From positions 1-54,588 of IMG/VR virus record IMGVR_UViG_3300034072_002231: a stretch of 54,588 bases of DNA. The stretch is one strand, 5' to 3'. A model generated the notes under the pieces. That model ran no database searches, was not told the DNA's origin, and saw only the letters and a program-made list of their open reading frames with translations. Shown here piece after piece: positions 6,050 to 54,588 of the stretch. The DNA comes from a virus. Its lineage: Duplodnaviria; Caudoviricetes. Position numbers and translations under genes: made by a program. The number at the start of each line of letters is the position of its first letter. Position 1 is the stretch's first letter.

Positions 6050-6061
6050 ACAGCAAGCACT

Positions 6062-6262
6062 ATGGCAACAACAAATGCATATACGCTAAACGAGATACGA
6101 AAAATATTTGAAGCCTGCACAACGCATGACGAGATAGATAAAGCCTGCCTTGCCTTCCGGTGGCTCATACAAAACAACTTTCAGCAGCGCAGCCATCAGC
6201 TGCAGGCCATATCGCTTATCAGGTTTAGCCAGATAATAAAAAAGAGCGATGGAAACAATTAA
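6062..6262 (+). CDS. Hypothetical phage protein
   Basis: 66-aa ORF in operon, overlaps next start. Confidence 0.6.
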   Translation: MATTNAYTLNEIRKIFEACTTHDEIDKACLAFRWLIQNNFQQRSHQLQAISLIRFSQIIKKSDGNN

Positions 6263-6722
6263 AATTATGGCAACACTGGTGCCTGCAAAAAAAGAAGACC
6301 TGTACTTTCCTACCGGAGAGGTAAAAGAATCTACAGTGGTTTTCGAAAAGTCAGCTAAAGACGGGAGATTTAGCGGGCCGCATTTCCTCGAGGTGCACAG
6401 CCTCGGGGCAATTGTGTGCCTTGCCTGCCGCGACTGGTTTTATATAATAAAGCGCGGGCACAACTACACTGCCGGAGAGGTTACCTTTAAGCTTGCCCTG
6501 CGCCGGGCAGAAGTTAACGATTTTAGGTGGTCGCCCTACTACCCCCGCTGGGGCAGGCTCTACTATACAAGTACAGATAAGGCTATGGTATATGGCCCCC
6601 ACTACCTTACCGAAGATACCGATAAAAAGCAGCTTGCCGCACAACTGCAGGACGGGCATATATGGGTGCCGGCAGAGGGGCAGCAGTTTTATGCACAACA
6701 CTACACAGCCTTGGCATCATGA
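6249..6722 (+). CDS. Hypothetical phage protein with apparent internal duplication
   Basis: 157 aa; two segments ending SGPHFL and YGPHYL. Confidence 0.65.
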   Translation: METIKIMATLVPAKKEDLYFPTGEVKESTVVFEKSAKDGRFSGPHFLEVHSLGAIVCLACRDWFYIIKRGHNYTAGEVTFKLALRRAEVNDFRWSPYYPRWGRLYYTSTDKAMVYGPHYLTEDTDKKQLAAQLQDGHIWVPAEGQQFYAQHYTALAS

Positions 6723-7031: not shown

Positions 7032-7928
7032 ATGGCCAGCAAAAAATCAAATAGCCCCTTAAGATATCCCGGAGGCAAAGCGTGTCTTACTGATTTTATT
7101 ACGAATCTGGTAGAGCGGAATAACCTTACTGGGGGTACATACTTAGAGCTATATGCAGGTGGAGCTGGTGCAGCCTTAAATCTCCTTTTTAATAAAGTTT
7201 TTGATAGAATTCATATTAATGATTTTGACTATCACGTTTATTGTATTTGGGATTCGATATTAAATGATACAGAAAATTTTATTCGTCTGATTAATGACAC
7301 TCCTATTACCATAGCTGAATGGCATAGACAACAAATTATTTTTAAGCAAGGAAGAAATGTTGACAATCTTTCGTTAGGATTTGCGACTTTTTTTCTCAAT
7401 AGGACTAATAGATCAGGCATAATTTTTAAGGCAGGCCCAATCGGTGGATTAAATCAAGAGGGAAATTATTTAATTGATGTACGCTTCAATAAGTCTGATT
7501 TAATTAAAAGAATTATAAAAATTGCAGATTACGGTAATTCTATAATTTTAACAAACCATGATGCGGTAGAAATAATAAATAATATTGGTGGTTTTGAGTA
7601 TAATCTTGATGATTTATTTATTTATCTCGATCCTCCATATTATAATAAAGGAAAGCAACTTTATTTAAACAATTATGCACATGATAATCATTTAGTTTTA
7701 GCTACTTCAGTTGAAAATTCTTTACATAATTTGCGTTGGCTTATATCCTATGATAATGTTGAACCTATTAAAAAAATGTATAATAGATTTAGGATGTCAA
7801 CATTTGATCTTAACTATACATTGCAAAGTAAAAAGTTCGGGAGTGAACTATTAGTCTTTTCTGATAATTTAGATTTGCCTGACTCAATCACAGTTAATAA
7901 CAGAAATAATCTACTGACATTAATTTAA
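7032..7928 (+). CDS. D12-class (Dam-like) N6-adenine DNA methyltransferase
   Basis: SPLRYPGGK, ELYAGGAG SAM-binding motif, YLDPPY catalytic motif. Confidence 0.92.
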   Translation: MASKKSNSPLRYPGGKACLTDFITNLVERNNLTGGTYLELYAGGAGAALNLLFNKVFDRIHINDFDYHVYCIWDSILNDTENFIRLINDTPITIAEWHRQQIIFKQGRNVDNLSLGFATFFLNRTNRSGIIFKAGPIGGLNQEGNYLIDVRFNKSDLIKRIIKIADYGNSIILTNHDAVEIINNIGGFEYNLDDLFIYLDPPYYNKGKQLYLNNYAHDNHLVLATSVENSLHNLRWLISYDNVEPIKKMYNRFRMSTFDLNYTLQSKKFGSELLVFSDNLDLPDSITVNNRNNLLTLI

Positions 7929-7929
7929 T

Positions 7930-9051
7930 ATGACTAACCCAATTGAACATATCAGTCCAGATCAGTTACATTTTGATTATAGAAATCCAAGGATAGCTGA
8001 ATTTGGCGTGAGTATTGACGACCCCGAACAAGATATTATTAAAATATTATGGGATGTAATGGATGTGCAGGAAATTGTTCTTTCCATTAAAGCTAGTGGA
8101 TTTTTTACACATGAACCATTAATTGTCATTAAAGAAAATGACAAGAATATTGTTATAGAGGGTAATCGAAGGTTAGCAGCAATAAAATGTATTGTAAATC
8201 CTGATATTGCAGATTATATTGGAATTAATGGTAATCTTTTACAGGTTGACGAAGGAATTAGAGGACAACTTCAATCTATTCCAATTATTTATGTTGATGA
8301 TAGAAAGGAAGCTTGGAGATATATTGGCTTTAAACATATTAATGGCCCTGCCAAATGGGGCAGCTACGCGAAGGCTCAATATATTTCAGAGATAAAGAAT
8401 GAGTTCAACATTCCACTAAGTCAAATTGCAATACAAATAGGAGATACTCATAATACTGTACAAAAACTTTATCAGGGCTTACAAGTAATTGAACAAGCTG
8501 AAAGTGTAGGTATTTTTGACAGAACTGACATAACAGCCAATCGATTATATTTTTCGCATTTGTACACTGGATTAGGGTATGAAGGATTTAAAGATTTTCT
8601 TGGTTTAAAAAATATCTCAGAAGAAACAGAAAATCCAGTCCCTGCTGATAAAATTGAAAATCTTGGGGATTTATTAACATGGATGTATGGTAGTAAAAAA
8701 CGAGAAATACCGGCGGTCATAAGATCTCAAAATCCAGATTTAAGAAATCTTGAAGAAGTAGTTAAAAATAAAGAATCTTTATTTGCTTTAAGAGATGGTG
8801 TTTCGCTTGCGCAAGCACTGGAAATTAGCAAACCTAAAACTCAGACATTTGAACAGAGTTTATTAGAGGCAAAAAGAGCTCTTCAGAGAGCTCAAACATA
8901 TTTCACAGAAGGATTTGATGGTAAAGATGAAGCTCTATTAAAACAGGCAGGTACTATAGCTCAAATTGCTGATGATTTATATGAATCAATGGTACAGAGG
9001 CATCGATTAATATTGAATAACGGAAAAAAAGATCGCGAATTCAAAGAATAG
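7930..9051 (+). CDS. ParB/Srx N-terminal domain protein
   Basis: FDYRNPR, EPLIV and VIEGNRRLAAIK ParB-like motifs; 1 bp after MTase stop. Confidence 0.85.
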   Translation: MTNPIEHISPDQLHFDYRNPRIAEFGVSIDDPEQDIIKILWDVMDVQEIVLSIKASGFFTHEPLIVIKENDKNIVIEGNRRLAAIKCIVNPDIADYIGINGNLLQVDEGIRGQLQSIPIIYVDDRKEAWRYIGFKHINGPAKWGSYAKAQYISEIKNEFNIPLSQIAIQIGDTHNTVQKLYQGLQVIEQAESVGIFDRTDITANRLYFSHLYTGLGYEGFKDFLGLKNISEETENPVPADKIENLGDLLTWMYGSKKREIPAVIRSQNPDLRNLEEVVKNKESLFALRDGVSLAQALEISKPKTQTFEQSLLEAKRALQRAQTYFTEGFDGKDEALLKQAGTIAQIADDLYESMVQRHRLILNNGKKDREFKE

Positions 9052-10831: not shown

Positions 10832-10839
10832 TAAGTTTG
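10832..10839 (+). promoter_or_regulatory. Bacteroidota sigma-70 -7 box
   Basis: TAAGTTTG immediately before leader RNA copy 1. Confidence 0.65.
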
Positions 10840-10842
10840 TAG

Positions 10843-11001
10843 TGCGAAATACCAATTTTACTTCTATGTTTTTTAAATTCTCACTAATAATATCCCACAG
10901 CAAGGAAGGGGTTTGGAGCCCTATCCCTCGAGTAAAATCTGGTGTTTCGCAGTCCTTGTTTGTGGGTCTTTTAAATTCACTAAGATTATGCGAAACACCA
11001 G
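10843..11001 (+). ncRNA. c4/CI-like antisense leader RNA, copy 1
   Basis: Site 1 TGCGAAATACCAATTTTACT (10843-62); antisense AGTAAAATCTGGTGTTTCGCA (10931-51) inside stem CCCACAGCAAGGA/TCCTTGTTTGTGGG (10894-906/10953-66); site 2 TGCGAAACACCAG (10989-11001) on the start codon. Confidence 0.7.
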
Positions 11002-11266
11002 TGAAAACAAAGTTACATCCGTTCAGGATGTGTTGCCGGCAATAGCAGCCTTATTGCAGCGGCACGACAAAGAAACATTTACAAATGCCCCGGCAGTAAT
11101 CAGGCAAATGTTTGACGACATTCTTGATACAGATTCCGGAGACAACATGCAGTACCGGCAGGAAATTCTCATTACCCTGCGCGCCATTACAGATTTAGGC
11201 ACAACACTGCAGCCCTTTCCACAGGAAATTATCTGGCAACTGCAAAACCCTCCCGCAAATGGATAG
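10988..11266 (+). CDS. Hypothetical protein A1 (paralog of 42938..43216)
   Basis: ATG start reassigned from paralog (MRNT...QDVLPA...QYR...DLGTTLQPF). Confidence 0.8.
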   Translation: MRNTSENKVTSVQDVLPAIAALLQRHDKETFTNAPAVIRQMFDDILDTDSGDNMQYRQEILITLRAITDLGTTLQPFPQEIIWQLQNPPANG

Positions 11267-11660
11267 CGTGGGCACAATTATCGTAATGTACCCCAATGGT
11301 ACAGCGGTAAGATATGAAAACAGCACCATAAGGTTTGCGGCCGCCCAGCTCATAGCAATGAATATGCCCGGAAACGAAGCTCCGCTCTACCTGCAGCGCG
11401 AAGGGTCAGAAAACAAAATATACTACCTGGAGAGTGCACTAAAGCGCTACATAAAAGGCGAAAGCAGCTATCAGGACACTATGGTAGCCCTGCTGTGCAA
11501 TGGCCTGTACCGCAACAAGGCCGACATTACCGTTAATGGCCACGAAATAGATGCCGGCAGCCTGTGGTTCCGCCACAACAATAAGCTCGTGCTGTGCAGC
11601 GCAGATGAGTATGCCTCCCTGCACCTGACCGGTAATGAAGATAAATTTACAGAGTTGTAA
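11259..11660 (+). CDS. Hypothetical protein B1 (paralog of 43227..43643)
   Basis: CNGLYRNKA and DAGSLW match CHGLYRNNA and DAHSLW in paralog; overlaps A1 stop. Confidence 0.8.
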   Translation: MDSVGTIIVMYPNGTAVRYENSTIRFAAAQLIAMNMPGNEAPLYLQREGSENKIYYLESALKRYIKGESSYQDTMVALLCNGLYRNKADITVNGHEIDAGSLWFRHNNKLVLCSADEYASLHLTGNEDKFTEL

Positions 11661-11665
11661 TAAGC

Positions 11666-11695
11666 AAAACTCCCCGCAATAGCGGGGAGTTTTTT
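11666..11695. terminator. Bidirectional terminator
   Basis: AAAACTCCCCGC AATA GCGGGGAGTTTTTT. Confidence 0.85.
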
Positions 11696-25047: not shown

Positions 25048-25663
25048 AGATATCGACCTTAAATATATCAAGAACTATATAGAGAATGGGCCGGGCGGCG
25101 ATGCCCCGGAAGCTGTGAACCGTTACCTGAGCCTTATGGATATGGTAAGGGGCATGCACAAGCGCATAGATAAATATGGCAGCCCTGAACCTATCATTAA
25201 GCATTTAATGACAACAGAGAAGCTGTCCCGGAAAAAAGCAAAGCAGATCTATGAAGAAGCGCTTGATTATTTCTATTGCGATAACTATATATCAAAACAG
25301 GCATGGAAGAATATCTATGCCGAAAAAATTGATATGCTCATCAATTTCAGCATGCTGGTAATGAAAGATGTCAGCGATGCGGCCAAGATTGCCAAAACCA
25401 TTATGGATGTGTGGAAAGTCAGGGAGCTTGACAAAGCCGAGGGGCAGGATATACCGGGAGAACTACTGGCAAAGCCGTTCAAGGTATATAATGCCAACGC
25501 TGAAGCTCTGGGTATGCCGCGGATTGACCGTAACAAACTGAAGGCACTCATTGATGAGAATGTGCCCGGACTTACGGAAGTACAAAAACAGGCGCTCTAC
25601 AGGGAAGCCGATATTGACGGAATGTTTAAAGCCTTTTTAGATGAGCAGGAAAACCCGCGTTGA
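25031..25663 (+). CDS. Hypothetical packaging-module protein
   Basis: ATG at 25031; overlaps large terminase start. Confidence 0.65.
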   Translation: MKLTIEDIDLKYIKNYIENGPGGDAPEAVNRYLSLMDMVRGMHKRIDKYGSPEPIIKHLMTTEKLSRKKAKQIYEEALDYFYCDNYISKQAWKNIYAEKIDMLINFSMLVMKDVSDAAKIAKTIMDVWKVRELDKAEGQDIPGELLAKPFKVYNANAEALGMPRIDRNKLKALIDENVPGLTEVQKQALYREADIDGMFKAFLDEQENPR

Positions 25664-27341
25664 TTTAAAAAGCGAGCTTGTAGAGCAACGCTATGCCACA
25701 AAGGTACAGATGGTAATTGATGCCGTGTCGCCAAAGAACCTTGCCATTATTGGCGGTCGTGGTACGGCAAAGACTACCATTTTCATGGCGCGCCGCTCTA
25801 TGGATATTATTCAGGATATGCCCGGTGCATACCTGGCATTGGTAACTGACACCTATACCAATGCAGAAAAAAACGTTGTGCCTACCCTTGTTGACGGATG
25901 GAAGCGCGAAGGCTGGATAGAAGGCGTACACTTTGTAATCAACAAAAGACCGCCGGCACATTTTAAAGATCCTTACAAGCCGCCGCTTACTTTTAAAAAT
26001 ACTATTTCCCTCTACAACGGTACAATCATTATCCTGGTAAGTTTAGACCAGCCAAGCAGCGCTGCCGGTAACTCCTACCAGCACATTTTTGGCGACGAGG
26101 CCAGGCTGTTGAAGTTTGAAAAGCTGAAAAGGCTGAACCCTGCCCTGAGGGGTGAAGCGGAACGATTCGGCCACTCTGTTTACTACCGCGGCAGGACTTT
26201 CATGACCGATATGCCCAATATCCTCTCCGGAGATGAAGACTGGATATGGGACATGAAAAAAGAAATGGATAATGAAAAGGTACAGCTCGCGTTTCAGGCC
26301 GGCATGGTGCTGAATGAAATAAAAATTGAGTTTTTAAGCGCGGTAGAGAAAAAGGATAAAACCGAAATGCTTCGGCTCAAAAAGCAATTCAAGAACTGGT
26401 ATGCCACATGGGTTTCTGCCCGGTTTGACCTTACCATGTTCTATGTAGTTTCCACACTGGCCAATGCCGATATTTTGACAGACGGCTACATTGCAGACCA
26501 GCTCGCATCACTCGGGCCCGAAGAATTTAAATCGGCAGTGCTATCCCTGAAACCGGATATTAAGCAGGGAGAGAAGTTTTACGGCCATTTGGGAGAGCAT
26601 CATTTTTATGATGATGGTATATTGCCGGCATTTTACGAAAAGTACAGCATTAACGATGATGTTAAGGCAAGCAGCCTTGCGCTGCGGTATATTGACCATA
26701 ATGCGGCAATTGATGTCGGGGTTGACTTTGGCGATATGTGCAGCATGGTAACAGGCCAGCATATTGGAAACTACCTTTACCTGCTCAAGGAATTTTACAC
26801 CCTTGCCCCGGAAAGCTCCGCGGCGCTTGCTGCAAAATTCCGTGATTTCTATAAAGACCATAATAAAAAGGTAGTGAATATGTACTATGACCGCTCCGGG
26901 AACCAGTACAGCAAAGTCAACCGCGACTGGGCATCAGAACTAAAAGGCTTTATTGAATATGATAACGGGGTAAGCACAGGCTGGTACGTCAACCTGATAA
27001 GCCGTAACCAGGCTACCATTTTACAATCTGAAGAATACAAATTTGCCGAGCAGCTTATGGGGGAAACCCATAAAGGCCTGCCGAAGCTGAAGATTGATAA
27101 ATTTGGCTGTGAATGCCTGAAGAGCAGCCTTGAGTTGACAAAAATAATTATAAAGGTAGACCGGAAAGGAAGCAAATCAATCCATAAGGACAAATCATCA
27201 GAAAAGCTGCCTTTAAAAAAGCGGCCAAAGTTCTCTACTAACTTTTCAGATGCATTTAAATATTTTATTTATAGATCAGAATATACTAGATACACAACTG
27301 ATAGGCAATCCTTTAGAGCCTTCGAAATAAGTGTTTTCTGA
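25641..27341 (+). CDS. Terminase large subunit
   Basis: Walker A GGRGTAKT, Walker B IFGDE, RNase H-like VGVDFG and FSDAFKY. Confidence 0.88.
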   Translation: MSRKTRVDLKSELVEQRYATKVQMVIDAVSPKNLAIIGGRGTAKTTIFMARRSMDIIQDMPGAYLALVTDTYTNAEKNVVPTLVDGWKREGWIEGVHFVINKRPPAHFKDPYKPPLTFKNTISLYNGTIIILVSLDQPSSAAGNSYQHIFGDEARLLKFEKLKRLNPALRGEAERFGHSVYYRGRTFMTDMPNILSGDEDWIWDMKKEMDNEKVQLAFQAGMVLNEIKIEFLSAVEKKDKTEMLRLKKQFKNWYATWVSARFDLTMFYVVSTLANADILTDGYIADQLASLGPEEFKSAVLSLKPDIKQGEKFYGHLGEHHFYDDGILPAFYEKYSINDDVKASSLALRYIDHNAAIDVGVDFGDMCSMVTGQHIGNYLYLLKEFYTLAPESSAALAAKFRDFYKDHNKKVVNMYYDRSGNQYSKVNRDWASELKGFIEYDNGVSTGWYVNLISRNQATILQSEEYKFAEQLMGETHKGLPKLKIDKFGCECLKSSLELTKIIIKVDRKGSKSIHKDKSSEKLPLKKRPKFSTNFSDAFKYFIYRSEYTRYTTDRQSFRAFEISVF

Positions 27342-40328: not shown

Positions 40329-40517
40329 ATGGCAAAAGTATCAGAACTTTTGAGACTATTGAAGAAAGATGGGTGGTACCTGTACAAAAACGGAGCTAAT
40401 CACGATTTATACAGGCATCCCTCGAAAAAAAATCAATTAACAGTACCGCGACATGGTAGCAAAGAGATGGCTACCGGTACATATAACAGTATACTTAAGG
40501 CAGCAGGATTAAAATAA
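40329..40517 (+). CDS. hicA: HicA family mRNA interferase toxin
   Basis: LKKDGWY...GANHDLYRHP...TVPRHG...GTYNSILKAAGL. Confidence 0.93.
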   Translation: MAKVSELLRLLKKDGWYLYKNGANHDLYRHPSKKNQLTVPRHGSKEMATGTYNSILKAAGLK

Positions 40518-40968: not shown

Positions 40969-41757
40969 ATGAATGTATTTATAAGTTGGTCAGGCGAAAG
41001 AAGTAAAAGAGTTGCTGAATTACTGGATGAATGGCTTAAATGTGTTATTCAGGCAATAGATCCGTGGATGTCAAGTAAGGATATTGACAGAGGTGCACTG
41101 TGGTTTACAGAAATTTCAGGGCAATTAGCAAATACCTCTATTGGTATTGTGTGCCTGACTAAAGAAAATAAAAACAAGCCCTGGATATTATTTGAATCAG
41201 GTGCACTTGCTAAAGGAATATCATCAAATAGAGTTTTGACATTATTAATTGATTTGGCACCTTCGGATCTTGAAAGTCCGTTATCACAGTTCAATCACTC
41301 ATTCCCTGATAAAGATGGTATATATAAGCTTGTAAGTACAATTAATGCCTATTTGGGTGATAAGGCATTAAATAAATCAATTTTAGAAAAAGTTTTTGAA
41401 ACATACTGGTCTCAATTTGAGGAGAATTTTAATCAGATATTAAAAGATGTACCTGAAGGAGAAATTGAAGATAAAAGATCATCTAATGACTTGCTCAATG
41501 AAGTACTAATGTCTGTAAGAGCAATGGATAGTAGATTAAGAAACTTAGAAACAAAAAATCGTCCAATCAAAAAAGCAACAATAGAAAAGGTTTCTGACGA
41601 AAATTCAAAGGAACCAAGAAACATTACCATTTGGGAGAATATAGGAAATAAAGATTTACTGGAATATCTTCGTAATGCAACAACTCCTGCAACTGAATTT
41701 TCAGATAAATATATAGATATGCAAAAATTCATTAGAGATAACTTTAAGCCAGAATAA
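40969..41757 (+). CDS. TIR domain protein
   Basis: VFISWSG, DIDRGALW, WILFESGAL with catalytic-position Glu. Confidence 0.88.
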   Translation: MNVFISWSGERSKRVAELLDEWLKCVIQAIDPWMSSKDIDRGALWFTEISGQLANTSIGIVCLTKENKNKPWILFESGALAKGISSNRVLTLLIDLAPSDLESPLSQFNHSFPDKDGIYKLVSTINAYLGDKALNKSILEKVFETYWSQFEENFNQILKDVPEGEIEDKRSSNDLLNEVLMSVRAMDSRLRNLETKNRPIKKATIEKVSDENSKEPRNITIWENIGNKDLLEYLRNATTPATEFSDKYIDMQKFIRDNFKPE

Positions 41758-41855: not shown

Positions 41856-42683
41856 ATGAAAACCCTTCTCCCCCTGCTCCTGCTATTTTTTAACCTGATG
41901 CTGTTTGCACAAGAACCTAAAGACGTTTATTACCTAAACAAAATACAAAAGCTTGAAAAAGCTGTAGATTCTCTCAAATCAGAAAGGGAACTATACAAAG
42001 CTCATTATCAAGCCAGTTCTCATAACACAGTGACTAATGAAGTTAAAGATTTTTATCAAGACTCATTTGATAATTTATTGTGGTTATTAGGCGGGTTAAT
42101 TACAGTATTTGGTATCATAATTCCCTTCTTGAATCAATATTTCCAAAGAAAAAGTTTGAATGATCTTACCGGAAGAATATCTAATCAACTTACTGAGGCT
42201 TTTGAGCAAAGGCTTGAAGTCCTTAACCAAAACAGCAAGACTCAAATTGAAAGAATAAATAGTGCTTTTCAAAGTGAAATTGAAAGAATCAACAGTATAA
42301 TGAATGAAAAATTTATAGAATTTGATAAACTCAGTGAAGACTTTAAGTTTCAGATTAAAGGTATGATGTTTTATAGTCAAGGTAGTGCTAATGTAGCTGT
42401 ACTAAATACATATTTGGGTATCTTTAATTTTTTGTTTGCTGCTGAAGTATATTTAGACTTGCATGATACTGATAATTATGAACTATGTATTGCAAATATT
42501 TTTAATTTAGTAGATAGTATAGATAAGGAAACAATTAGTAATTTAGAATCACACTTGCAAGCTTATGATTATACAATTGATAAATTCATGCATAAATTTA
42601 TTAATAATTACACTTCAAATATAAATCTTCAATATTTAGAAGTAATACATCAAAAATTCAATGAATTTAAATATCCAATATAA
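41856..42683 (+). CDS. Hypothetical membrane protein with signal peptide and coiled coils
   Basis: Signal peptide, TM LLWLLGGLITVFGIIIPFL, helical C-terminus. Confidence 0.75.
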   Translation: MKTLLPLLLLFFNLMLFAQEPKDVYYLNKIQKLEKAVDSLKSERELYKAHYQASSHNTVTNEVKDFYQDSFDNLLWLLGGLITVFGIIIPFLNQYFQRKSLNDLTGRISNQLTEAFEQRLEVLNQNSKTQIERINSAFQSEIERINSIMNEKFIEFDKLSEDFKFQIKGMMFYSQGSANVAVLNTYLGIFNFLFAAEVYLDLHDTDNYELCIANIFNLVDSIDKETISNLESHLQAYDYTIDKFMHKFINNYTSNINLQYLEVIHQKFNEFKYPI

Positions 42684-42781
42684 TAAAGTAGTTTTTCTAT
42701 AAAGGAAAATAAGTCTCAAAGTATAAAATTCTTTACAAACCAGAAATCTTGCACATTCGTGCAAGATTTTGCATTTTATAC

Positions 42782-42789
42782 TATATTTG
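42782..42789 (+). promoter_or_regulatory. Bacteroidota sigma-70 -7 box
   Basis: TATATTTG immediately before leader RNA copy 2. Confidence 0.65.
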
Positions 42790-42792
42790 TAA

Positions 42793-42950
42793 TGCGAAAC
42801 ATAGTTGCCTGAAACTCTAAATCAGGGTAAATACTTTAATTAATAATATGGCGGAGTCCGGTAGCAGTAATGCCCGGAAAGTACTTCACTTAGGTGACTG
42901 TGTTTCGCAGCTCCGCCTCCATTAATTTATTCTTGTTATGCGAAACACAG
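42793..42950 (+). ncRNA. c4/CI-like antisense leader RNA, copy 2
   Basis: Site 1 TGCGAAACATAGTTGCCTG (42793-811); antisense TAGGTGACTGTGTTTCGCA (42891-909) inside stem GGCGGAG/CTCCGCC; site 2 TGCGAAACACAG (42939-50) on the start codon. Confidence 0.7.
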
Positions 42951-43216
42951 AAGTAAATGCAAAAGAAAACACATCTCCACAAGATGTAATTCCCGCCTTA
43001 GTGGCATTTTTAAACCGGTATGATATTACCGAAATTGCCACTACCTGCCCTGCCACAGTGCAGGAAATGTTTAACGACCTTATGTGCACAGAAGCTGCCG
43101 ATAGCGCCCAGTACCGCGAGCGCATGCGCTTTTCTCTGCTCATAATTGCCGACCTGGGCAATACCCTGCTGCCTTTTACAGATATAGATGCATCTGCCAT
43201 AAAACTGCCCGCATAG
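42938..43216 (+). CDS. Hypothetical protein A2 (paralog of 10988..11266)
   Basis: MRNT...QDVIPA...QYR...DLGNTLLPF. Confidence 0.8.
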   Translation: MRNTEVNAKENTSPQDVIPALVAFLNRYDITEIATTCPATVQEMFNDLMCTEAADSAQYRERMRFSLLIIADLGNTLLPFTDIDASAIKLPA

Positions 43217-43226
43217 CCCCTGCCCT

Positions 43227-43643
43227 ATGGATGCAAAGGCTACCGTTTCCGTACTGTTCCCCAAGAGCAGCGCGGTGCCCTACCACGAAGTTACAGTACT
43301 GGAAGTGGCAAAAACAATTATAGACATGAAGCTAACGCCCAAAACAGAGCCGCTGCTGCTAACTGTACAGGGGCAAAAAGAGCAGCTATACTACAACAGG
43401 TATATGTTTTGGCTGTATGCAAAGGGTAAAATAAGCTATGCCGACTTGCTGGCCTCGTGCTGGTGCCACGGGCTGTACCGCAACAATGCAGAGCTTGTTG
43501 GCCCCGCCGCCGAAACAGTAGATGCGCACAGCCTCTGGATGCTGCGCCACAACACACTTTTGCTTGTAGATGATAACAGGCACGTTACCCAAAGCTCGGC
43601 CACTATTGATGCGTTATTTTATAATGTAGAAAAAGTTCCGTAG
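43227..43643 (+). CDS. Hypothetical protein B2 (paralog of 11259..11660)
   Basis: CHGLYRNNA, DAHSLW. Confidence 0.8.
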   Translation: MDAKATVSVLFPKSSAVPYHEVTVLEVAKTIIDMKLTPKTEPLLLTVQGQKEQLYYNRYMFWLYAKGKISYADLLASCWCHGLYRNNAELVGPAAETVDAHSLWMLRHNTLLLVDDNRHVTQSSATIDALFYNVEKVP

Positions 43644-43691
43644 GTTTGTACCTTACATCTTGTAATCAGGATGATGTTAAATGAATTTTAA

Positions 43692-43721
43692 AAAGAAGCC
43701 CCGCTATTGCAGGGCTTCTTT
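43692..43721. terminator. Bidirectional terminator
   Basis: AAAGAAGCCCCGC TATT GCAGGGCTTCTTT. Confidence 0.8.
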
Positions 43722-43741
43722 GATTTTTATGTTTATTTAAG

Positions 43742-44723: not shown

Positions 44724-47700
44724 ATGGCAAAAAAGCGAATTTCAGATGAGGAGATAAAACTATCCATCGTCATTAATGGTAATGAGGCACAGAAAGAGCT
44801 TTACGAACTTGAGAAAAATACACGTGAAGTAACTGCTGCCAATAAAGAACTGCTTGCAGAAAAGAAAAAGCTGGAGCGGCAGGGCAAGCAGGAAACTGCG
44901 GAGTATAAAAAACTTACTGCCGAGATTAAAGCTAACAATGCTGTACTCAGGCAAAACAAGTCCCGTATGGGCGAGCTTCAGAATGAAATCGGGCTAACAG
45001 GCTTAACACTTGCCCAGCTCCGTACAAAAGCCAATCAATTAAAACTTACCCTTAGAAATTTAATTCCCGGTTCTGCCGACTATAACAGGTATCAGGCAGA
45101 GCTGAAGCAGGTTTCTGCAAGGCTCGACGAACTGAATGGCAAAGCAAAAACCGCAGCCTGGAGCGTGGGCAATATTGCAGACCGGTTTAACCGTTTTGCT
45201 GCCTTGGGTGCAACTGTAATTGCTGCGGGTACCGGGGTGGTGCTTACCCTGCAAAAAATGATAGACTATAACGGCAAGCTTGCAGATGCGCAAAGCAACG
45301 TTATGAAAACAACCGGCCTTACCCGCAAAGAGGTTGACGAGCTTACAAAGTCTTTCAGCCAGCTCAGGACAAGGACATCGCGCATAGAGCTGCTTGGCAT
45401 TGCCGAAGTAGGTGGCCGCCTGGGTATAGCCAAAGAAGAGATAGCCAACTTTGTTAAGGTAATGGATAAAAGCGCCGTTGCCCTTGGCGATAGCTTTGAG
45501 GGCGGGCCCGAAGTGGTTGCCGAAAAACTTGGGCGTATAAAAGGGTTGTATGATGAGCTTAAAAACAGCAACGTTGAAAGCGCATTTGAAAGCGTTGGCT
45601 CTGCCATGAACGATTTGGGCGCGGCAGGAACTGCAAGCGAACAAAATGTTGCGGAATTTACTACACGCGTGGGTGCACTGCCGGCAGTTTTAAAGCCTAC
45701 TATTCAGGAAGCGCTTGGGCTTGGCGCCGCTTTCGAGGAAAGCGGGCTAAAGGCAGAAATTGCCGGTACCAACTATGGCAAGGTAATATCTATTGCAGCG
45801 CGGGATATTGGCAATTTTGCCACTGTTATGCGCAGGCCCAGGAAAGAACTTGAAGATCTTATCAATAATGACCCTACAGAATTTTTCCTTCAGTTTGCTT
45901 CATCATTAAAAGGGCTTGATGCCACAGAGCTTGCACAGGTGCTGGACTATCTGAAGCTGAATGATAATGAGGTTAAGATGGTGTTGGGTGCAGCTTCTCA
46001 GAACGTGGATATGTTCCGGGAGAAGATTGACCTTGCTTCAGAGAGCATGGCAGAGGCTACTTCACTGACTGACGAGTATAACATCAAAAACAACAACCTT
46101 GCTGCCACGCTGGAGCGGATCCAGAAAAAAGTATTCGGCTGGTTCAGTTCCGAAACGGTTGTGCAGTGGCTTGAGGATTTTGTAAATGGCTTTGCCAAGC
46201 TTATAGGCGCAGTAGAGGACAGCGAGGGCACTATGAATACTTTAAGGAATACACTTGTGTTTACAGCTAAAATCCTCGCTATTGTTGCCGCATCATTTAT
46301 TAGCTATGCCGCCGGTGCTAAACTGTCCACTATATGGAGCAACACACTCGGCAAGGCAACTGCATTCTCTAACTTAGTTTTTAAAATACAGTACGCCTTG
46401 CTCATAGCCAATGAGATAAAAACAAAGGCGCTTGCCCTGGCTAAAGCATTGCTTACAGGAAATATTACCAGAGCAAGGGCGGCATACCAGGCGCTTGCCG
46501 TAACTATGGGCCTTAACCCATTCGGGGTGCTGCTTGGTATCATCGGGGCTGTTATAGCAGCTTTTGCCCTCTTCAGGAAAGAGGTAGATGAAACCTCTAA
46601 AATACTACAGCAGCAGGCTGAAATACAAAAGCAGGTTCAGGAGCAGACCGGGCGCACAAAAAACAGGGTTGCTGACCTTGTGGCAACCCTTAAAGATGAA
46701 AACGCCACCTACGACCAAAAACAGCGGGCACTTGAACAGCTTCAGAAATTAGGCAGGGGGTATCTCGATACACTTACACTGGAGAATGCTCTTACAGCAG
46801 AAGGCGACAGGCTTGTAAAAGAGTATATAAAATCTATTGATAAGCTGGCTGAAGCTAAGGCAATGGTTGATGTACGCAGCAAGCTGATGGCACAGAAAAC
46901 AGAATCTGAAAATAAAATTTTAGCGCTCAGGAATGAAAAGGGAGCTACAGCTAATGAAGGTTTAAGCGATTTCTTTGGCGGCAGCGATGGCAAATTATTT
47001 GGCATAGGCTCGCGTAACCAAAAAGAGATACAGTCAGAAATTGATGAGGAAAACGAAAGGAAGCGGCTTATTGAATTGCAGCTTAATACAATTAATAAAA
47101 ATAGGACAGAGGAGCTTGAAAAATTATCATTAAGAATCAAATCAGGAAGACAACAGCTTGAAAAACTAAAGAAAAATTCCGATGAATATAAAAAGCTGCT
47201 GCGGGATATACTGAATGATGAAGAAACCTTTAATATCCTCTCCGGTATTACTGATGCTGCCGATAGTGCCCTGAGCGTTACCGGTGGCGATTTGTTCATA
47301 CCTGATCCGGATGCTGCTCAAAAGGTAAAACAAGCTGCTGAACTGCACAAAAAAAGAATGGAAGATATAAAGAAGCAGCTTGAGGATATTAAGGGTCTTT
47401 CCCGGAAAGCCATTGATGAGCGCCTGGAACTGATGGAAGAAGGGCTGGATAAAGAAGAAGCGCTTGAAGCCGAAAACCATAAGCGCAGGATAGAAGATTT
47501 AAAAGCACAGCTTACCAGTGAAGCTGATATTCAAGCAGCCGAAAAGAAAATGCTTAACCAAAAGTTAAGTGTACAGGAAAGGGATTACTGGAGCCGACAG
47601 GTGCAGGTATGGGTAAGCAAAAATGTGCATTTAAACGGACTGCTCCAGCTTGAGCAAGCAAGGCATCAGTATAAACTGGCAACTATAAGAACGAAAGGCG

Positions 47701-49067
47701 AGCAGGACAAACTGGAGAAGCTGCAACAGGCTTATGAGGATGAAACAAAGCTAAGGCAGACCAAACATAACTACGAGCTTGCCGCACTTGGTGATAATGA
47801 AGCCAAAAAAGCAAAGCTTCAGCAGCAGTTTGACAAGTCGGAACTGGAAAGACAACAAAAGCACCTCGAAAAGTTATTACAGGCACAATTAGATGTACTT
47901 GCAGATAAGAATAAAAAAATTGACCTTACCCTTCTTGATAAAGAACAAAGGCAGAAAATAGAACAGGATATAGCCGACCTGAAGCTGAAGATATCGGAAA
48001 TCGTAAAAGCAAAGGCAGAACTCTCCGGCAAGGGCGGTACCGATGATATGGCCAATGCATTTGCCAAAGCCTTTGGCGATGCGGATGTACTTGGCTTTAC
48101 AGCCCAGCAGTGGGGGCAAACCTTTAGTAGCCTTGATACGTTGTCGGAAAAGCTGGAGGCAACAAAGTTGGTAATCGGTGCCATGCAAAATGTGTGGGGT
48201 ACATTCAACGACTTTGTAGCTGTAAATGAAAATGCCCGTCTTTCGAGTTTTGAGCGAAATGCAGAACGCAAGAAGCGTAAACTGAAATGGCAGCTTGACA
48301 ATGGCTATTTAGACCAGGTACAGTATAACCGTGAGGTAGAGCGGATGGATGCTGAGCTTGATGTTAAGCGATCTGAAATTGAGTACAGGCAGGCCAAGCG
48401 GCAAAAGCAGATTTCAGCCATGAATATTATATGGAACACTGCCCAGGCCATTATGGGTATCTGGGCACAATTCCCAAAAGCTGACTTTGGTGCTACAGCA
48501 GCAATTATGGCAGGGGTTGTGGGTGCCCTGGGTGCAGTGCAGCTCGCCACTGTACTTAAAACCCCGCTGCCGGCAAAAGGATATGAACAAGGCCTTTACC
48601 CTGATTATGTAAAGCGTGAGCAGGATGGTAAATTATTCCGTGCCGGTTATGGCGGCAAAACACGCTCAGGCATGGTGAACAAGCCTACCTATTTCCTTAC
48701 GGGCGAGAATGGCCCTGAGATGGTAATTGACAACAGGGCATACCGTTCCCTCTCAGCCGAAACCCGTAATGCATTGCTCAGGGAGCTGAGGGGCATCAAA
48801 GGATGGGAGAATGGCTATTACTCTGACCAGGTTAAAGGGCAGCGCTTTGAAGTGCCTGCCTCTTTCACCAATACTGCCCCAATAAGTAATAATCAGGATG
48901 CGGACAGAGCATTGCTTATTGAAGTGGTGCGGCGCAACACAGAAGTAATGGAGAAGATCTACACAGACGGAATCATAAGCTATTTTTCCCGTGATCCGCG
49001 CGACCTTAAAAAGCTAATGGAAGATATGGAAAGGATTACCCGCAGTAAAGAAAAAGCCAAATACTGA
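44724..49067 (+). CDS. Tail tape measure protein
   Basis: 1447 aa, coiled coil, TP901-like core (VMKTTGL...GGRLGI), LNPFG, GENGPEMV. Confidence 0.92.
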   Translation: MAKKRISDEEIKLSIVINGNEAQKELYELEKNTREVTAANKELLAEKKKLERQGKQETAEYKKLTAEIKANNAVLRQNKSRMGELQNEIGLTGLTLAQLRTKANQLKLTLRNLIPGSADYNRYQAELKQVSARLDELNGKAKTAAWSVGNIADRFNRFAALGATVIAAGTGVVLTLQKMIDYNGKLADAQSNVMKTTGLTRKEVDELTKSFSQLRTRTSRIELLGIAEVGGRLGIAKEEIANFVKVMDKSAVALGDSFEGGPEVVAEKLGRIKGLYDELKNSNVESAFESVGSAMNDLGAAGTASEQNVAEFTTRVGALPAVLKPTIQEALGLGAAFEESGLKAEIAGTNYGKVISIAARDIGNFATVMRRPRKELEDLINNDPTEFFLQFASSLKGLDATELAQVLDYLKLNDNEVKMVLGAASQNVDMFREKIDLASESMAEATSLTDEYNIKNNNLAATLERIQKKVFGWFSSETVVQWLEDFVNGFAKLIGAVEDSEGTMNTLRNTLVFTAKILAIVAASFISYAAGAKLSTIWSNTLGKATAFSNLVFKIQYALLIANEIKTKALALAKALLTGNITRARAAYQALAVTMGLNPFGVLLGIIGAVIAAFALFRKEVDETSKILQQQAEIQKQVQEQTGRTKNRVADLVATLKDENATYDQKQRALEQLQKLGRGYLDTLTLENALTAEGDRLVKEYIKSIDKLAEAKAMVDVRSKLMAQKTESENKILALRNEKGATANEGLSDFFGGSDGKLFGIGSRNQKEIQSEIDEENERKRLIELQLNTINKNRTEELEKLSLRIKSGRQQLEKLKKNSDEYKKLLRDILNDEETFNILSGITDAADSALSVTGGDLFIPDPDAAQKVKQAAELHKKRMEDIKKQLEDIKGLSRKAIDERLELMEEGLDKEEALEAENHKRRIEDLKAQLTSEADIQAAEKKMLNQKLSVQERDYWSRQVQVWVSKNVHLNGLLQLEQARHQYKLATIRTKGEQDKLEKLQQAYEDETKLRQTKHNYELAALGDNEAKKAKLQQQFDKSELERQQKHLEKLLQAQLDVLADKNKKIDLTLLDKEQRQKIEQDIADLKLKISEIVKAKAELSGKGGTDDMANAFAKAFGDADVLGFTAQQWGQTFSSLDTLSEKLEATKLVIGAMQNVWGTFNDFVAVNENARLSSFERNAERKKRKLKWQLDNGYLDQVQYNREVERMDAELDVKRSEIEYRQAKRQKQISAMNIIWNTAQAIMGIWAQFPKADFGATAAIMAGVVGALGAVQLATVLKTPLPAKGYEQGLYPDYVKREQDGKLFRAGYGGKTRSGMVNKPTYFLTGENGPEMVIDNRAYRSLSAETRNALLRELRGIKGWENGYYSDQVKGQRFEVPASFTNTAPISNNQDADRALLIEVVRRNTEVMEKIYTDGIISYFSRDPRDLKKLMEDMERITRSKEKAKY

Positions 49068-53406: not shown

Positions 53407-54588
53407 CTAAAAGGTGTTGCTGTTCCTGAAAATTTCTTCATCCCTATCATAATGCTTGTTTGAAATATATTTTTCGGTTTGACGCAACTCGCTATGTCTT
53501 GCTTGCTTTTGAACTTTATAGCTTGGATGACCCTTATCTAATAATTCCGTAATTCCAGTATCTTTTAGTGAGTAAAATTGAAAATTGGGAGGCAATTTTA
53601 ACTTATTTCGTATTTTATCCCATTCATCAGTAATTTTTTTTGGCTGAAGTTGGTCATAACCTGGCTGATAATTATTTGCTGAAAACAAATACATATCCTG
53701 CGATGCATTCTTTACATGATTTACCAGCAAATATATCAAAGCAATAGGTATAGTTACTGTTGCTTCTTTTTTACTTTTTTTTGCAGTACTTGTTTTTACT
53801 ACTATCAGAGATTTAGCTAAACGTAGGTCAGATACTTTTAATTTCGTCAATTCAGTTCTTCTGATAAAGCAATAGAAAGTCGTCATGCACAAGCATAAGT
53901 AAGAGGGATTATATTCTTCCAAATGTTTTTTTATAAGATCTCTGTAGGCAACAGGTATAATAACTCTTATTTTCTCATTCTCTTCAATCCTTCTTATGCC
54001 TAGCGCAGGGTTTGCAGGTATATAGTCTCTATCCAAAAAGTAATTTCCAATGTTTATTAGAAATTGCAGATAATTATTATGAGTGGCAGGAGAGTTATCT
54101 CTTTCATAATATATATAATCTAAAAAATCTGTTGTAAACCTTCTGTTATAGTCAATTATGAACATTTTGAGTTTACCTTCATGAGCAAGATATTTTTTTA
54201 TGTTATTTACATAAGAAGTATAAGCTCTTTTTGTATCGGCCCTAATGGCATTATCAAACTCTCTTTTATTAATCTTATATATAAATTCATCTAGACAATC
54301 TTTAAAAAGGCTATATGATTTTCTGCTACTATTAACTAAGTAAGGATTCCATCCTTCAGCTAATTTGCGGTTTAAGTTGATAATTATATCATTTGCAAAC
54401 TTTAGCCTAGCTTTTTTATTCGACATAGGTTTTACTCGTTTTCTAACCCTAACCAGTTTTTCAGATGATACATCTTTCACGTAAAAAACTATACGCCATT
54501 CATCCTGAGAGCCACGCTGTAGTTCTGCTGGTACATAATCAACACCATTTATATAAATTTTTGTACTTGATTTTTGAGTAGAGGACAT
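53407..54588 (-). CDS. Tyrosine recombinase (phage integrase)
   Basis: FIRRTEL, YSLKDTG, QARHS, TEKY catalytic motifs; at prophage end. Confidence 0.93.
   Translation of the reverse strand: MSSTQKSSTKIYINGVDYVPAELQRGSQDEWRIVFYVKDVSSEKLVRVRKRVKPMSNKKARLKFANDIIINLNRKLAEGWNPYLVNSSRKSYSLFKDCLDEFIYKINKREFDNAIRADTKRAYTSYVNNIKKYLAHEGKLKMFIIDYNRRFTTDFLDYIYYERDNSPATHNNYLQFLINIGNYFLDRDYIPANPALGIRRIEENEKIRVIIPVAYRDLIKKHLEEYNPSYLCLCMTTFYCFIRRTELTKLKVSDLRLAKSLIVVKTSTAKKSKKEATVTIPIALIYLLVNHVKNASQDMYLFSANNYQPGYDQLQPKKITDEWDKIRNKLKLPPNFQFYSLKDTGITELLDKGHPSYKVQKQARHSELRQTEKYISNKHYDRDEEIFRNSNTF

Follow-up and report, generated by a model that had tools for sequence, protein, structure and literature searches.

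Two diverged c4-like antisense leader modules in a provirus of Bacteroidota

The window analyzed here, i.e., the whole stretch of 54,588 nucleotides (nt), is one complete provirus record of IMG/VR (IMGVR_UViG_3300034072_002231), the host of which is assigned to Bacteroidota. It carries two diverged copies of a unit that combines a structured leader RNA with two small open reading frames (ORFs), A and B, located at 10832–11693 (copy 1) and 42782–43721 (copy 2). In each leader, a single antisense segment, enclosed by a closing stem, pairs with two target copies, of which site 1 lies just behind a putative promoter box and site 2 lies at the translation start of ORF A. We consider it probable (about 0.7) that each copy forms a transcription unit complete in itself, on the plan of the immI operon of phage P1. 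The evidence for this proposal lies in the anatomy of the modules, in the covariation and strand specificity of their pairings among relatives, and in a design shared with the c4 and c4-2 RNAs.

Anatomy and pairings of the two copies

The features of copy 2 and its upstream boundary are as follows.

42743–42770, + strand: terminator-like hairpin ending the upstream gene (41856–42683); 12-pair stem and T-rich tail
42782–42789, + strand: putative −7 promoter box, TAnnTTTG, 3 nt before site 1
42793–42812, + strand: site 1, the 5′-proximal target copy; 20 bp with the antisense segment, four of them G-U
42850–42917, + strand: c4-like RNA core, comprising closing stem, hairpin 1 and antisense segment
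42850–42857 / 42910–42917, + strand: closing stem; 8 pairs, one G-U
about 42857–42878, + strand: hairpin 1
42890–42909, + strand: antisense segment
42938 (ATG) and 42939–42950, + strand: start codon of A2 and site 2; 12 Watson-Crick pairs with 42898–42909
42938–43216, + strand: ORF A2, 92 aa, in the position of icd in P1
43227–43643, + strand: ORF B2, 138 aa, PHROG 38077 family
43694–43728, + strand: putative module terminator after B2; hairpin and T-rich tail, read by eye

The hairpin at 42743–42770 insulates the module from the upstream gene, and the TAnnTTTG box is one that we take to be a −7 promoter element of the Bacteroidota type. Helices were found by an exhaustive ungapped search in which G-U pairs were allowed. 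For site 1 the original prediction had given 19 of 19 pairs, four of them G-U, and the search returned 20 contiguous pairs with the same four; the 12 of 12 pairs predicted for site 2 on the ATG were recovered as Watson-Crick pairs throughout. The helix between site 1 and the antisense segment is the minimum-free-energy pairing of the copy 2 leader, and site 2 spans the UG of the ATG at 42938 together with the following 10 nt. The core is followed by T-CCA (42918–42921) and a U-rich tract; a 7-bp stem followed by T-CCA (42911–42921) occurs in copy 2 only and is at most suggestive with regard to release by RNase P. The hairpin at 43694–43728 was not called by the terminator scan.

An identical architecture had been claimed for the other copy, and the same order of parts is indeed found at 10832–11693.

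10832–10839, + strand: putative −7 promoter box
10843–10854 and 10855–10863, + strand: site 1; pairs with 10940–10951 and 10930–10938 (12 + 9 bp, C10939 bulged)
10894–10966, + strand: RNA core, with the antisense segment at 10930–10951; followed by TCTTTT
10894–10906 / 10953–10966, + strand: closing stem; 13 bp with one irregularity
10989–11001, + strand: site 2; 13 pairs with 10939–10951
10988–11266, + strand: ORF A1, 92 aa
11259–11660, + strand: ORF B1, 133 aa; 8-nt overlap with the end of A1
11666–11693, + strand: intrinsic terminator-like hairpin, called by the scan

The hairpins that end the two modules (11666–11693 and 43694–43719) are alike in sequence despite the divergence of the modules otherwise.

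The two copies have a 10-nt seed in common, for which nine matches with at most one mismatch were found in the window against 2.6 expected, and six of the nine are the six sites of the two modules. When all 170 ORF starts of the window were screened for at least 10 bp to an upstream segment plus at least 10 bp between that segment and a further upstream copy, a single start passed, namely 42938; copy 1 escaped this rule, its ORF having been assigned an upstream TTG as start. Both leaders fold better than their shuffled counterparts (z of −3.4 and −2.4). The three alternative conformers, i.e., those with the site 1 helix, the closing stem and the site 2 helix, have calculated energies of −48.0, −42.4 and −39.9 kcal/mol in copy 2 and of −39.1, −32.8 and −40.7 kcal/mol in copy 1, and thus fall within about 8 kcal/mol of each other. 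No further convincing trans target of either antisense segment was found in the window, where the remaining matches are G-U-rich and 12–15 nt long.

The proteins of the two copies, described as clear paralogs in the original prediction, are 43% identical for A and 31% identical for B. In a tree of the B family, B1 groups with a protein from elsewhere (support 96/85) and not with B2, which means that the copies did not arise by recent duplication within this phage. The longest exact stretch common to both is 14 nt, inside ORF B, and the suggestion that the modules act as recombination anchors finds no support, since copies with so little exact identity are unlikely substrates for homologous exchange.

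The proposal of two specificities holds at one site and barely at the other. At site 1, the cognate duplexes (−25.6 and −30.5 kcal/mol) are far stronger than the cross-copy duplexes (−14.9 and −16.6 kcal/mol), in which pairing is limited to the common seed. At site 2, the cross-copy duplexes (−17.4 and −18.5 kcal/mol) are only 2–5 kcal/mol weaker than the cognate ones (−22.9 and −20.1 kcal/mol). Cross-repression at the translational target, with discrimination at site 1, is therefore to be expected, and between the two outcomes that had been considered, orthogonal immunity groups or graded cross-talk, cross-talk between the copies is more likely than strict orthogonality.

Relatives of the leader and covariation of its pairings

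Relatives were sought with a two-site DNA pattern consisting of the antisense seed, a gap, and ATG plus seed, which matched 56 viral loci. Site 1, which the pattern does not demand, is present in 21 of the 39 distinct two-site regions when the two of the window are counted (weakly, with 6 bp, in L020); the 18 regions without it look like chance matches or unrelated hairpins and were not kept as relatives. A three-site pattern matched 14 genome loci, 12 of them in Bacteroidota (Flavobacterium, Pedobacter, two contigs of Olivibacter, Chitinophagaceae, Cytophagales and others). The alphaproteobacterial hits, L058 and L064, consist of GC-rich palindromic repeats of the same 10-mer and its complement and were dropped as unrelated. 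The removal of three such palindrome elements and the collapsing of duplicates left 25 distinct elements. A strict promoter box lies at most 16 nt upstream of site 1 in 15 of them. The base before site 1 is G in 11 elements, A in nine, T in four and C in one, so that site 1 mostly opens with a possible start codon, which in copy 2 begins a six-codon mini-ORF (42792–42812); this start-like base could reflect the transcription start, a decoy start or a mere duplication of site 2.

The three pairings are specific to the element in which they occur. Duplex energies calculated with RNAduplex for cognate partners, i.e., those from the same element, were compared in a permutation test with those for partners drawn from different elements. 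Over the 25 elements, cognate pairing was stronger for site 1 with the antisense segment (−26.1 against −16.4 kcal/mol), for the antisense segment with site 2 (−21.8 against −16.0 kcal/mol) and for the closing stem (−22.6 against −13.0 kcal/mol), with p ≤ 1e-4 in each case. A stem enclosing the antisense strand was obtained in 30 of 31 elements folded with the seed held open. From 12 relatives, the window sequences excluded, RNAalifold recovered the closing stem and hairpin 1, with compensatory changes at 10 of 15 pairs. A covariance model built from the same 12 sequences matched copy 2 (25.4 bits, E value 9.5e-6) and additionally found six relatives that were not in its seed alignment, along with, in L061, a second element overlooked by the pattern. 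In a 24-row alignment fitted to the model, which includes three doubtful rows at E > 0.05, 85.1% of the cells pair, a share that none of 500 shuffles reaches and that compares with 54.3% in shuffles. The covariation score of 0.76 drops to 0.24 when the alignment is shuffled and to 0.13–0.26 when it is slid, and double-sided changes occur at all 11 modelled stem pairs.

The differences between partners also bear on the choice between RNA and DNA. The site 1 helices comprise 298 Watson-Crick positions, 11 G-U-compatible transitions and no A-C-type transition, and the site 2 helices comprise 333 Watson-Crick positions, one G-U-compatible transition and again none of the A-C type. With 12 G-U-compatible transitions against none of the A-C type, the counts indicate pairing of RNA on the + strand and speak against DNA operators. 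Since most relatives were fetched with the seed, its conservation is partly built into the sample, and the observations free of this bias are the closing stem, the pairing outside the seed and, for the viral set, the presence of site 1.

Homologs retrieved through the proteins retain the arrangement with other seeds. The genome locus L072, found with a B profile, encodes homologs of A and B behind a leader that has all three sites with a seed that differs at all three; the first codons of A are altered along with it, and site 1 pairs over 12 + 7 bp. A tblastn search of GenBank phages located B in eight records of Flavobacterium psychrophilum phages. In Flavobacterium phage 2A, the leader of the A/B genes (gp06/gp05) comprises the promoter box, both target sites and a stem-closed antisense strand; the seed is again a different one at all three sites, and the first codons of A are altered accordingly. 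The original prediction named A/B homologs without the three-site complementarity as the observation that would speak against it; both L072 and phage 2A keep the sites with changed seeds. Its claim that the structure is under selection has likewise been strengthened by the cognate specificity of the three pairings over 25 relatives, by the double-sided changes at 11 of 11 stem pairs, and by these seed-changed homologs.

B itself is rare in reference genomes. Its homologs occur in one of 401 reference genomes of a phylum sample and in two of 401 of an order sample, with one genome common to both; the order-sample match L073 has a partial B-like domain only and no three-site leader. At E ≤ 0.001, B has 83 cluster representatives, and a search of 5.8 billion proteins returned one other relative of A. 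Protein patterns for further A/B loci gave 25 matches in viral contigs (alignment A1) and 367 in metagenome contigs (alignment A7), none of which was confirmed.

Kinship with c4 RNAs, cargo and proposed mechanism

The immI region in the P1 record, a likeness that the original prediction had not recognized, provides the closest comparison for the design.

48155–48223: promoters
48255–48276: a1/b1
48343–48419: c4, 77 nt, annotated as binding targets in the icd-ant mRNA
48423–48459: a2/b2
48470–48691: icd, 73 aa
from 48688: ant1, overlapping the end of icd

The order of parts is the same as in the window, i.e., promoter, upstream target copy, stem-closed RNA, target at a translation start, small ORF and a joined second ORF. 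The topology agrees as well, in that c4 has both a long closing stem and a first hairpin and its recognition strand lies next to the 3′ strand of that stem. As in C4, the RNA of both window copies is encoded upstream of its target on the same strand and is flanked by the two target copies. There are, however, several differences. Recognition in P1 involves two short boxes (a′ and b′), whereas one continuous strand of 12–20 nt is used here; the P1 target lies upstream of icd, whereas here it covers the start codon and the first codons; and the hosts of P1 c4 are Proteobacteria rather than Bacteroidota. C4 regulates an antirepressor, whereas A and B contain no recognizable antirepressor, although relatives of the leader precede AntA and Rha genes. 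Many relatives have a U-run after the closing stem, unlike P1 c4. As for the C4 trait of a downstream target that governs translation of a small first ORF coupled to the next gene, site 2 here lies on the start codon, and the second ORF overlaps the first by 8 nt in copy 1 and follows after a 10-nt gap in copy 2. Neither leader matched RF01695 (C4; cut-off 45 bits) at E ≤ 10, and RF03163 (c4-a1b1) gave no match either; in the same scan, P1 c4 scored 68.8 bits and its c4-a1b1 51 bits.

The c4-2 RNA motif (RF02944), a member of the c4 clan, is among those described by Weinberg et al. (2017; PMC5737381). It was the one relevant match in a permissive Rfam scan of the copy 2 leader, which it covers with the whole length of the model; the score is 27 bits, where 41 are required, with E of about 1e-3 for a search space of 231–301 nt. 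Genuine c4-2 members above the cut-off were found in two of 151 Bacteroidota genomes sampled, one of which has at least six copies. Like the modules described here, these loci (L076–L081) present a TAnnTTTG box, site 1, the core, site 2 with ATG and a small ORF in a host from Bacteroidota. Their recognition is two-part, with a constant box and a variable hairpin loop that covaries with both sites, in contrast to the single continuous strand of the window copies, and the 77-aa protein that they carry as cargo fits neither the profile of A nor that of B. The loci belong to the genomes G054 and G025; in the genome with at least six copies, every copy stands before this conserved 77-aa ORF, and no constant sequence is kept among them in the variable loop or in the two target sites. 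In a full-text literature search, no paper tied c4 to Bacteroidetes apart from a list in Weinberg (2010), where c4 stands under "Proteobacteria, phages".

The modules also resemble SymE/SymR and other type I pairs, in which an antisense RNA likewise covers the start region of a small harmful gene, and the leaders of some relatives precede genes of the SymE family. SymR, however, is encoded opposite its target gene, whereas the RNA here is encoded upstream on the same strand. A and B themselves match neither SymE_toxin nor another type I toxin family; SymE cargo occurs in relatives of the leader only. We therefore place both copies within the c4 kind but outside RF01695 and RF02944, since they use single-strand recognition, carry different cargo and do not reach the c4-2 threshold.

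The B family consists of proteins of about 130 aa (PHROG 38077). The structural model of B (predicted local distance difference test score, pLDDT, of 95) contains two small domains, of which the C-terminal one resembles SH3-like barrels; the VIA comparison reached a Z score of 5.8 at best, and SH3 domains aligned with residues 81–136 make up most of its rows. With Z of about 5, this likeness in a predicted model may be just a common barrel arrangement, and Foldseek returned no match at E ≤ 0.001 in PDB or BFVD. A is predicted to be helical with low confidence (pLDDT 52); its Atlas entries are only unnamed clusters of about 90 aa from Bacteroidota and viruses, and the Atlas yielded nothing usable for B. 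Other first ORFs of about 95 aa behind related leaders show no BLASTP similarity to A.

More can be said of the genes that stand behind related leaders. AntA is found in L005, L024 and L071; Phage_pRha in L005, L018 and L021; and SymE_toxin in five proteins above the Pfam cut-off in L061, L065, L067 and L070. HNH_3 proteins occur as second genes in L012 and L025, and several further leaders precede ORFs without a family. On the minus strand of L061, a 1030-aa ORF lies between two SymE-family genes (1592–1894 and 6053–6356), each with its own c4-like leader; the two modules are 4.4 kb apart. In the second leader the seed deviates slightly, site 2 matches over 15 nt, and no clear site 1 was seen. 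All first ORFs retrieved with the common seed begin with M-R-N, since the RNA target coincides with the first codons, and the beginnings change to M-L-K or M-Q-K where the seed is changed. By analogy with the genes that the leader accompanies elsewhere (antirepressors and SymE toxins), untimely expression of A and B would probably do harm or break lysogeny.

We infer the following course of events. The module's own promoter would start an RNA at or beside site 1, and about 60 nt downstream a structured RNA of 70–80 nt would form, in which the closing stem surrounds a hairpin and the single-stranded antisense segment. In P1, c4 is released from its precursor by RNase P; the stem-closed RNA here may be freed by processing in a similar manner or by a transcription stop at the U-rich tract, a feature seen behind the stem in many relatives. 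The freed RNA would then pair with site 2 on A/B transcripts of the resident prophage or of an incoming relative and mask the start codon. Bacteroidota rely little on Shine-Dalgarno sequences, which is why hiding the start codon itself would matter, and B would be silenced together with A by translational coupling. Within the same molecule, site 1 would compete for the antisense segment; as this segment abuts the closing stem without a linker, the site 1 helix excludes the stem. Site 1 may thereby keep the nascent transcript in an open, read-through form unless a trans RNA occupies it, which would create a switch.

Several observations weigh against this reading. At the gathering cut-off, no Rfam 15 family is matched anywhere in the window; copy 1 has no match to the c4 clan even at E ≤ 10, and such matches are absent from all 15 viral and all eight genome relatives, so that homology to c4 or c4-2 is suggested by one sub-threshold alignment together with the common design. 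The covariance model of 12 relatives reaches copy 1 with just 12.5 bits (E 0.52), the doubtful rows contribute to the 24-row statistics, and the seed-based retrieval flatters the conservation of the seed. The closing stem of copy 2 is followed by a weak U-tract, and the site 2 helix of L072 is just 8 bp long. Finally, neither A nor B has an assignment in Pfam, PADLOC or the named PHROGs, and both lack a match to any antirepressor, toxin or defence family.

Prophage setting, rival explanations and significance

The setting of the modules is given by the following genes of the provirus and of the two islands.

1654–1968: helix-turn-helix repressor-like gene
25641–27338: terminase gene
44724–49064: tape-measure gene
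53410–54588: integrase gene
7032–9048: PD-Lambda-5-like pair near copy 1, methyltransferase and partner
40329–40514: HicA toxin near copy 2, Pfam E 1.9e-17
40969–41754: TIR-TM protein near copy 2, PADLOC E 1e-63

The statement that each copy sits inside a defence-gene island is a fair one, given HicA and TIR-TM at copy 2 and the PD-Lambda-5-like pair, an 8xMP membrane protein and an HNH protein at copy 1. The pair at 7032–9048 matches the PADLOC models PD-Lambda-5 B (E 3.6e-112) and A (E 1.2e-20) and is a candidate defence pair carried by the prophage. A 136-aa ORF without a family match occupies the HicB position, between the HicA and TIR-TM genes. The GC content of the A/B ORFs (10988–11660 and 42938–43643) is 47–50%, which is close to that of the phage core (46% in the tape-measure gene), compared with 30–35% in the flanking island genes; by this comparison, the modules look like older residents of the phage than the low-GC genes around them. 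In five cases, namely window copy 2, phage 2A, L012, L025 and L032, the module immediately precedes the tape-measure gene.

This neighbourhood bears on a substantive alternative, to which we assign a minority share of belief, namely that A/B is a toxic or abortive-infection effector with the leader RNA as its antitoxin, i.e., a same-strand counterpart of type I systems instead of a control of lysis and lysogeny. The occurrence of the same leader family before SymE_toxin genes in five cases, the position of both copies among defence and toxin genes (TIR-TM, HicA, PD-Lambda-5-like), and the moron-like possession of a promoter and terminator per copy all agree with it. On the other hand, A and B match no toxin or PADLOC model, the leader equally precedes AntA and Rha antirepressors, the A/B homologs of L072 are followed by KilA-N and P22_AR_N-like genes, and the GC content of A/B fits the phage core and not the low-GC neighbours.

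A purely cis-acting leader switch, such as an attenuator, thermosensor or ligand sensor that works without a trans RNA, its antisense segment pairing alternately with site 1 and with site 2, appears unlikely by comparison. Its attractions are that all three sites lie on one predicted transcript, that the conformers are close in energy, and that the U-run after the closing stem of many relatives recalls terminator/antiterminator leaders. Such a switch does not need a stem-closed RNA with an exposed recognition strand, though, and the pairing seed is the only invariant stretch, the alignments showing no conserved pocket-like core; site 2 stays perfectly Watson-Crick while site 1 tolerates G-U pairs; and the design matches that of c4 and c4-2, the P1 record placing the c4 targets in the icd-ant mRNA. 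The cis and trans readings are not mutually exclusive. We regard it as very improbable that a phage repressor binds the three repeats, of which two are direct and one is inverted, as DNA operators, even though a 10-nt word does occur three times around a promoter and start codon: the partner differences are strand-asymmetric (12 against 0), sequence beyond the seed covaries between partners rather than being conserved, the three sites of L072 and of phage 2A have altered their seed together, and a covarying stem encloses the inverted copy. The unit built like immI, acting through a freed antisense RNA, thus remains the preferred explanation.

A wider reading is offered tentatively. The stretch from the promoter to about the fourth codon may be a portable "RNA gate" cassette of Bacteroidota mobile elements, in which the leader RNA dictates the first codons of the cargo and which is reused before antirepressors, SymE toxins and A/B-like effectors, with site 1 as a 5′ decoy or antiterminator that senses the trans RNA and the whole as a bistable immunity switch made of RNA only. 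If this were true, SymE behind such a gate would form a same-strand, type I-like toxin-antitoxin pair, and a phage with two gates of distinct site 1 specificity and a common seed would have two partly coupled switches.

The c4 RNA of P1 is the textbook example of an antisense RNA encoded on the transcript of its own target and has so far been treated as a speciality of proteobacterial phages. The same logic is now seen in phages and prophages of Bacteroidota, in a form that Rfam 15 does not capture, and a target placed directly over the start codon suits a phylum that makes little use of Shine-Dalgarno sequences. The carriers include cultured Flavobacterium phages, and the two copies in one prophage permit a natural 2 × 2 comparison of specificity; a compact, reprogrammable RNA repressor would also be offered to a phylum with few genetic tools. 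Since its cargo ranges from antirepressors to SymE toxins, the leader family may provide a handle on how temperate phages of Bacteroidota silence dangerous genes.

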